A program made the position numbers and the translations under genes. The notes beneath the pieces were generated by a model. The model worked only from the letters and a program-made list of their open reading frames with translations. It was not told the DNA's origin and made no database searches. 7,585 nucleotides of DNA, taken from positions 1 to 7,585 of IMG/VR virus record IMGVR_UViG_2698536372_000007. The stretch is one strand, 5' to 3'. Positions within the stretch are counted from its first letter, which is position 1, and every line of letters begins with the position of its first letter. The stretch comes from a virus (Duplodnaviria > Heunggongvirae > Uroviricota > Caudoviricetes). This document shows positions 6,852-7,228 of this stretch, piece by piece.

Positions 6852-7043
6852 TTAAAGTCCTGCCGGTATTTCGTTATTATTAGTGTGAGTAGTTTTATCT
6901 ACCGGATAACAGTTACCGGGAATTTTTTGTTCTGCTGCTGCAGCCATGCATTCTTTCATTGAACCGTATAAGCCAGTCACCAGCTCAAGAGATTCGCCGG
7001 AAACAAGATAAACTGTCAGAACGAGTGCAAATGTTGTATTCAT
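6852..7043 (-). CDS. Small hypothetical protein, 63 aa, with hydrophobic N-terminal segment
   Basis: ATG at 7043-7041 overlaps the stop of the upstream gene (ATGA), indicating translational coupling; AAGGA lies 8 nt upstream. N-terminus MNTTFALVLTVYLVSG is hydrophobic, with three Cys in the remainder. Not recognised as a known family. Confidence 0.5.
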   Translation of the reverse strand: MNTTFALVLTVYLVSGESLELVTGLYGSMKECMAAAAEQKIPGNCYPVDKTTHTNNNEIPAGL

Positions 7044-7228
7044 TGTTTATATCCTTTTTGCAGCAGGTCCAGACGAGCCAGCATTGAAGGAATGCATACT
7101 TCATTTAACAGGTCCTGCTCGAGTTTTCTCTGCTTAATGGCGTCTTCAATAAATGTTTTGTCTCCAGTGATAACGCCAATTTCGAAACGAAGTTCAGACG
7201 TGCTGGCATTACATGATAACTTTTCCAT
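7040..7228 (-). CDS. Small hypothetical protein, 62 aa (MEKLSCNASTSELRFEIGVITGDK...)
   Basis: Internal ATG at 7228 preferred over the 97-aa ORF start (7333) because GAGGA lies 7 nt upstream of it. Stop TGA 7040-7042 overlaps the next gene's ATG. Confidence 0.5.
   Translation of the reverse strand: MEKLSCNASTSELRFEIGVITGDKTFIEDAIKQRKLEQDLLNEVCIPSMLARLDLLQKGYKQ

Follow-up and report, generated by a model that had tools for sequence, protein, structure and literature searches.

Two overlapping small genes upstream of a prophage exonuclease are a diverged allele of dicB and ydfD

We analysed a 7,585-nt stretch of viral DNA (positions 1 to 7,585 of IMG/VR record IMGVR_UViG_2698536372_000007; this whole stretch is called the window below), with attention to two small genes that overlap on its minus strand upstream of an exonuclease gene. 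An earlier note on this DNA had placed a pair of roughly 60-aa genes at 6852-7228, giving no strand, and had described them as overlapping by ATGA, each served by a good Shine-Dalgarno sequence. These observations are borne out (Table 1). The upstream gene encodes 62 aa (MEKLSCNAS...KGYKQ; full translation MEKLSCNASTSELRFEIGVITGDKTFIEDAIKQRKLEQDLLNEVCIPSMLARLDLLQKGYKQ) and the downstream gene 63 aa (MNTTFALVLTVYLVSG...IPAGL; full translation MNTTFALVLTVYLVSGESLELVTGLYGSMKECMAAAAEQKIPGNCYPVDKTTHTNNNEIPAGL), and the exonuclease gene starts at 6758 after a gap of 93 nt, as its placement in the note implied. The arrangement is a conserved one: all 11 other loci examined, a Klebsiella phage among them, keep an NTGA overlap together with a ribosome-binding site that contains GGA and lies about 7-8 nt before the start, and the GGA at the position of the second Shine-Dalgarno sequence is common to all of the loci compared. 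The same note found no family that it recognised for either protein, and here it was mistaken. We found that the first protein belongs to the DicB family of cell-division inhibitors (PF05358) and the second to DUF1482 (PF07358), the family of the K-12 lysis protein YdfD, and that both are identical to proteins already in RefSeq, where they are annotated for hundreds of genomes of Shiga-toxin E. coli.

Table 1. Features of the dicF-dicB-ydfD region, with the adjoining exonuclease gene and insertion element
Feature	Position	Strand	Basis or remark	Identity to K-12 Qin
Right end of IS600-like (IS3-family) element, cut by the window end	7488..7585	-	Match to annotated IS ends	
dicF small RNA, including terminator stem-loop	7456..7405	-	Rfam RF00039	98%
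dicF-dicB spacer, 176-nt structured dicB leader	7404..7229	-	Folding, K-12 comparison	97%
dicB Shine-Dalgarno GAGGA	7240..7236	-	7 nt before dicB ATG	
dicB, cell-division inhibitor, allele of Shiga-toxin-producing E. coli (STEC) prophages	7228..7040	-	Pfam, NCBIfam, K-12 identity	72% (coding DNA)
ydfD Shine-Dalgarno AAGGA	7056..7052	-	Inside dicB 3' end, 8 nt before ydfD ATG	
ATGA stop/start overlap of dicB and ydfD, translational coupling	7043..7040	-	Read directly from sequence	
ydfD homologue, DUF1482, orthologue of K-12 lysis protein YdfD	7043..6852	-	Pfam, PHROG, K-12 identity	75% (coding DNA)
ydfD-exonuclease spacer	6851..6759			92%
Weak terminator-like hairpin in the ydfD-exonuclease spacer	6814..6801	-	5-bp stem then GGGATTTGTT; consensus match only	
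816-aa exonuclease, next operon gene, intact counterpart of K-12 pseudogene ydfE	6758..4308	-	PHROG 2082, full length	

The 62-aa protein matches the Pfam DicB profile from end to end (residues 1-62 on profile positions 1-62 of 62; E 7e-39, 131.8 bits against a cut-off of 27) and, with 123.7 bits where the cut-off is 100, the NCBIfam model NF049927 ('cell division inhibition protein DicB'). A gap-free alignment with K-12 DicB over the full length gives 55% identity, and the RefSeq twin of the protein, WP_000413705.1, carries the same name as the NCBIfam model. When the Pfam scan was extended to E = 1, only DicB and a chance-level match to PH_28 were returned. The protein has two cysteines, and a single-sequence AlphaFold model of modest confidence (pLDDT 78, above 90 in the helix) predicts a short N-terminal hairpin followed by one long helix at residues 24-61; neither this protein nor its partner has a relative of solved structure in the PDB. 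The dicB reading frame stays open for 35 codons further upstream, to a GTG at 7333. A 97-aa product beginning there was considered and rejected: the family match occupies its residues 36-97 only, and the extension falls within the structured leader described below. We took the ATG at 7228 as the start because the family match begins at that point; the start annotated in K-12 is the same. Cam and colleagues reportedly described an in-phase internal start for dicB in 1988, going by the title of that work as it appears in a citing paper.

The evidence for the 63-aa protein is of the same kind. Residues 5-61 align with profile positions 2-57 of 57 of DUF1482 (E 2.8e-19, 69.2 bits, gathering threshold 25), PHROG 1092 is matched at E 3.5e-34, and identity to K-12 YdfD, which RefSeq names 'lysis protein', is 63% over the full length. 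No NCBIfam model was matched; the identical RefSeq entry, WP_001098307.1, is a 'DUF1482 family protein', and a Pfam scan to E = 1 gave DUF1482 alone. The protein has two cysteines, C32 and C45, and not the three that had been counted before; both are invariant in five homologues, including one from a Klebsiella phage. Its two ends are those of the K-12 protein, with an Asn after the initiator Met (MN...) and a terminal Leu (...AGL). Changes at either terminus of YdfD abolish lysis, and intact termini are required (Lu et al., PMC8835842).

The layout of the locus is that of the cryptic prophage Qin (Kim) of K-12, in which dicF-dicB-ydfD-ydfE stand in the order of dicF, dicB, ydfD and the exonuclease gene in the window. 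Spacings are nearly the same, at 174 nt between dicF and dicB (176 nt here) and 92 nt between ydfD and the exonuclease gene (93 nt here), with an equal overlap of 4 nt. Two differences stand out: ydfE in Qin is a pseudogene broken by IS2, whereas the exonuclease gene of the window is intact, and Qin has ydfABC and the promoter side upstream, where the window has an IS600-like element instead. Sequence identity falls exactly at the dicB start codon, the non-coding flanks (6759-6851 and 7229-7456) being conserved. Mosaic lambdoid phages usually exchange material at conserved linker sequences, and conserved flanks around diverged coding sequences are this usual lambdoid pattern; constraint on the leader RNA at the nucleotide level may add to it. 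At least three allele classes of dicB-ydfD can be told apart, namely the window type, the K-12/mEp460 type and the PPompW type, and the dicF-dicB layout is shared by K-12, mEp460 and PPompW. Compared with their K-12 orthologues, dicB has a dN/dS of 0.54 (dS 0.56) and ydfD of 0.35 (dS 0.64); these values point to purifying selection on both genes and, averaged over whole genes, show no sign of positive selection. The closest relatives are in prophages of Shiga-toxin-producing E. coli, such as those of O103 RM8385 and EH2252, where both proteins are 100% identical and the DNA is 99.9% identical over 6700-7489. In EH2252 the match extends over positions 1-7487 of the window, again at 99.9%, and includes the exonuclease, excisionase, integrase and EspK neighbours. 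Upstream of the module these genomes carry a DUF1391 gene, hypothetical genes of the early-left region and, beyond them, the repressor region, where the window instead enters IS600.

The pair is widespread. Of 5426 complete E. coli genomes 4075 have it, with as many as six copies in a genome; 503 records hold the exact window allele (at least 99% identity), and 3543 hold an allele of K-12 type, which is 60-80% identical to the query. In a phage collection dicB occurred in 20 records, and in each of them a ydfD homologue directly adjoins its downstream end; the survey of about 2,000 phage genomes by Balasubramanian et al. in 2016 had detected no DicB (PMC5069750), so that these records update it slightly. 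Eight more phage records, of Klebsiella, Citrobacter and Salmonella, have DUF1482 but no DicB. In Klebsiella phage ST13-OXA48phi12.4 (locus 2391-2692), DUF1482 is coupled by ATGA to an unrelated 37-aa open reading frame (ORF) that replaces DicB, an exonuclease gene follows after one small ORF, and no DicF was found at the locus. A scan of GTDB with one genome per species gave DicB at only seven loci, all of them in Escherichia or Shigella apart from a bin labelled MAG Veillonella parvula; that bin holds a complete Escherichia-type dicF-dicB-ydfD module, which is probably binning contamination. In Shigella flexneri SFBU0723 the ydfD gene, at about 1684-1740, carries a frameshift that shortens its product to 18 aa, next to an intact dicB, which suggests that the lysis gene can be lost selectively.

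Upstream of the pair lies the small RNA DicF, which matches Rfam RF00039 along the full model (positions 1-52 of 52; 77.0 bits against a gathering threshold of 48, E 3.4e-16), is identical to K-12 dicF at 51 of 52 positions and ends in a terminator stem-loop followed by a U-tract (fold z = -4.7). The RefSeq annotation of the matching STEC genomes has no RNA gene in this region. The 176 nt between dicF and dicB are predicted to fold strongly (minimum free energy -71.8 kcal/mol, z = -6.2) around a perfect 21-bp closing helix in which 7395..7375 pairs with 7244..7264. In a weaker, predicted 7-bp extension of this helix, the U-tract after DicF pairs with the GAGGA Shine-Dalgarno sequence through three G-U pairs. 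Across nine loci the leader hardly varies, including those with a diverged DicF or DicB; its two variable helix positions stay paired as G-U, and it is almost invariant among the seven GTDB loci as well. Of known RNA families, it aligns with STnc100 (RF02076), a gammaproteobacterial small RNA candidate, through a shared closing helix and inner hairpins. The score falls short of membership, at 37.4 bits in the window against a gathering threshold of 47, and phage loci that match the full model length reach 38.7-40.1 bits, still below it; the element here is moreover the leader of dicB and not a free-standing gene. The RNase III site mapped in K-12 sits upstream of dicF (PMC10448788), and we therefore regard the leader helix as a separate element. 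It is conceivable, and in our judgement rather unlikely, that the leader is a functional RNA switch that gates the coupled dicB-ydfD pair on read-through transcripts, and that the allele classes differ in their specificities. Such a leader could occlude the dicB ribosome-binding site or serve as a substrate of RNase III, and the sharply diverged coding cassette between conserved flanks would then reflect differing host targets or phage exclusion.

Transcription of the module in this DNA is affected by the IS600-like element. Its end lies 31 nt upstream of dicF and is 100% identical to hundreds of annotated ends of IS600-family transposases, and likeness to the other STEC prophages stops at about 7487. 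By our reading of the sequence, the C-terminus and stop codon of the transposase lie on the minus strand, in the direction of the operon. In K-12 the dicBF operon is transcribed from dicBp, a promoter repressed by DicA, and the longest transcript detected ends after ydfD (PMC10448788). Here the insertion of the IS600-like element has severed dicF-dicB-ydfD from its native promoter as well as from the RNase III site that lies upstream; whether the module is expressed is uncertain, and expression would need read-through from the element. The claim of the earlier note that both genes are probably expressed is less secure than it looked: the two Shine-Dalgarno sequences on which it drew are there, but the genes sit behind the DicF terminator and a leader predicted to be very stable, and their promoter has been displaced.

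Both proteins belong to the families named above, their gene order is like that of Qin and their coupling is conserved. We consider that they are very probably the dicB-ydfD pair of a dicBF-type early-left operon, from a lambdoid prophage of Shiga-toxin-producing E. coli, and that they work much as their K-12 counterparts do. In K-12, DicB blocks division by bringing MinC to the septum through ZipA, with depolymerisation of FtsZ, and it inhibits ManYZ, blocking ManYZ-dependent entry of phage DNA (PMC6832061, PMC10448788, PMC4967827). K-12 YdfD causes a rapid lysis that needs ongoing division and is prevented by co-expression of DicB or SulA; it is reported to bind IspG, and an excess of IspG or of its product HMBPP to rescue the cells (Lu et al., PMC8835842). 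The minus-strand order in the window would accordingly run from DicF through the 176-nt structured leader to dicB, the ATGA-coupled ydfD and the exonuclease gene, with transcription normally starting at a DicA-repressed promoter of PL type and reading through the DicF terminator. DicB would bind MinC, recruit it to the septum via ZipA and dismantle FtsZ rings, so that cells filament, and it would also block the ManYZ-dependent DNA entry of lambda-like phages. YdfD would cause rapid, division-dependent lysis by inhibiting IspG of the MEP isoprenoid pathway. On the coupling of the genes, Lu et al. note only that they overlap (PMC8835842). We suggest that ribosomes finishing dicB would restart on ydfD at the 4-nt overlap, and that its conservation would mean that the lysis protein never appears without the masking division block.

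Several points weigh against this interpretation. The proteins are only 55% (DicB) and 63% (YdfD) identical to those studied in K-12, and the first 14 residues of DicB agree with K-12 at only 6 of 14 positions. This diverged segment matters: the N-terminal region is required for full DicB activity, and larger deletions there weaken MinC binding, whereas the last eight residues are dispensable (PMC4967827). We found no published test of the window allele, the primers of an O157 study matching a different allele class (PMC6915034), and the IspG mechanism stands on the binding and rescue data of one group, without enzyme kinetics (PMC8835842). The insertion upstream of dicF makes expression doubtful, and the leader helix, ending 4 nt from the dicB Shine-Dalgarno sequence, may pair with it. 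On the minus strand, between the IS end and dicB, a scan for consensus promoters detected none; the sole match on that strand overlaps the dicB start codon.

We weighed several alternative explanations. Genes of 62 and 63 aa are very short, and an upstream extension of the dicB frame exists; two chance open frames, or one gene wrongly split, might look like this. We rejected that possibility as exceedingly improbable in view of the full-length profile matches to both proteins, dN/dS below 1 for both genes, lengths and overlap conserved in 11 loci, and orthologues that have been characterised experimentally; other ORFs in the region (7092-7400, 6822-6962 and 6959-7087 on the plus strand, 6985-7104 on the minus strand) have no Pfam match. 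It is more of a live question whether the genes, rightly identified, are silent cargo in this strain, severed by the IS600-like insertion from the DicA-controlled promoter and persisting as harmless while silent. The junction between IS600 and dicF was found in none of the 5426 complete E. coli genomes, which makes the insertion probably recent and strain-specific; the missing consensus promoter fits the same picture, and the frameshift in Shigella flexneri indicates that such modules do decay. Yet both frames are intact and identical to those in hundreds of other genomes, and the transposase is codirectional, such that read-through or an outward promoter could drive the module. On balance we hold silence in this strain to be possible but not the likelier state.

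Two further alternatives accept the identity of the genes and dispute what they do. The pair might serve chiefly to protect the lysogen and not the phage's own lytic growth, with DicB excluding ManYZ-dependent superinfection and a YdfD masked by DicB killing the cell when the balance is lost or division resumes, much as a toxin with its masking partner or an abortive-infection system would. K-12 DicB does guard against lambda and other ManYZ-dependent phages (PMC6832061), YdfD lysis is suppressed by DicB or SulA (PMC8835842), and three quarters of the complete E. coli genomes have kept the pair, frequently within defective prophages. However, neither protein matches a PADLOC-DB defence model at E <= 0.1, no experiment ties YdfD to defence, and the position upstream of the exonuclease is kept in complete phage records, which fits a role in the lytic cycle; we therefore think protection unlikely to be the main role. 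The remaining question is where the YdfD homologue resides. Its N-terminus is hydrophobic, as had been noted, with an 11-residue Kyte-Doolittle maximum of 2.35 at residues 4-14, and V-S-G before E17 would, as we read it, suit the -3/-1 pattern of signal peptidase; the protein could thus sit at or across the inner membrane through an anchor or a cleaved or uncleaved signal, with its cysteines in a disulfide, and not act as a cytosolic inhibitor of IspG. Masuda and colleagues are said to have proposed membrane association in a 2016 paper on ydfD. C32 and C45 are invariant even in the Klebsiella phage homologue, and since K-12 YdfD lacking cysteines still binds IspG (PMC8835842), they must have some other purpose. 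Against this, the hydrophobic run is short and rich in beta-branched residues, its 19-residue maximum of 1.51 is below the 1.6 usual for a membrane helix, there is no positively charged n-region, and a single-sequence AlphaFold model of low confidence (pLDDT 65.5) makes the segment a beta-strand packed on a helix in a small alpha/beta unit. K-12 YdfD was moreover purified with soluble tags and bound the cytoplasmic IspG, whose excess, like that of HMBPP, rescued lysis (PMC8835842). A membrane location is accordingly improbable to our minds; a soluble protein is mildly favoured by these predictions, in agreement with the soluble tagged YdfD of Lu et al.

Set beside other phage proteins, the dicB-ydfD pair resembles known systems in function and not in sequence. 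DicB is like lambda Kil and similar small proteins of the PL operon that block FtsZ-ring function and cause filamentation, but this likeness is functional only, no sequence relationship being found in the Pfam scan to E = 1. DicB acts via MinC and ZipA, and Kil acts on FtsZ with ZipA. The earlier note had pointed to this part of a lambda-type early-left operon as the place of kil-, gam- and cIII-like genes that modulate the host; the general guess is supported through homology to DicB and YdfD, whereas neither protein belongs to the Kil, cIII or Gam families by sequence. What the note observed is in the main confirmed, and its interpretation is partly supported. YdfD for its part recalls the single-gene lysis proteins (phiX174 E, Qbeta A2 and LysM of phage M), to which Lu et al. 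compare it; these are also small and lyse dividing cells by blocking the supply of wall precursors, not by breaking down the wall (PMC8835842). It is unrelated to them in sequence, its proposed target is IspG and not MurA, MraY or MurJ, and its source, unlike theirs, is a lambdoid prophage of double-stranded DNA, which carries holin and endolysin lysis genes as well.

The rest of the window belongs to the same prophage and to its neighbour. At its C-terminus the exonuclease carries an Rv2179c-like 3'-5' exoribonuclease domain (E 1.1e-65), and its middle region resembles exodeoxyribonuclease VIII at a score far below the cut-off of that model; ydfE, at the same position in K-12, is a truncated remnant of such a gene. 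An ORF of 126 aa at 3998-4378 (minus strand) matches the excisionase-like DUF4224 at residues 51-94; the RefSeq version has 80 aa (3998-4240), and the ORF overlaps the start of the integrase gene by 23 nt. The window covers the junction of two tandem prophages (104-373 on the plus strand, 2578-2718 on the plus strand and 3001-4020 on the minus strand): from the first come a tail-fibre C-terminal gene, EspK and a fragment of a tail-fibre-assembly pseudogene, with the integrase of the second immediately after them. EspK, a type III secretion effector (828-2189, minus strand; NCBIfam 1055 bits, cut-off 934), is cargo at the right end of the neighbouring prophage. A sub-threshold Rfam match to 'IS009' at 2501-2672 overlaps the tail-fibre-assembly fragment, and there are no tRNA genes in the 7,585 nt.

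The dicF-dicB-ydfD module is already known and already annotated, and we claim no novelty for it, because both proteins match curated families and identical sequences stand in RefSeq. In practice the annotation is corrected, and a pair previously left unrecognised becomes dicB and ydfD. For the study of dicBF operons, three leads may be of use. All the experiments used the K-12 proteins, from which those of the STEC allele differ by about 40%; the leader of dicB is better conserved than the genes that follow it and is predicted to be strongly structured; and the transcription of the module has been rewired by an IS element in this strain.

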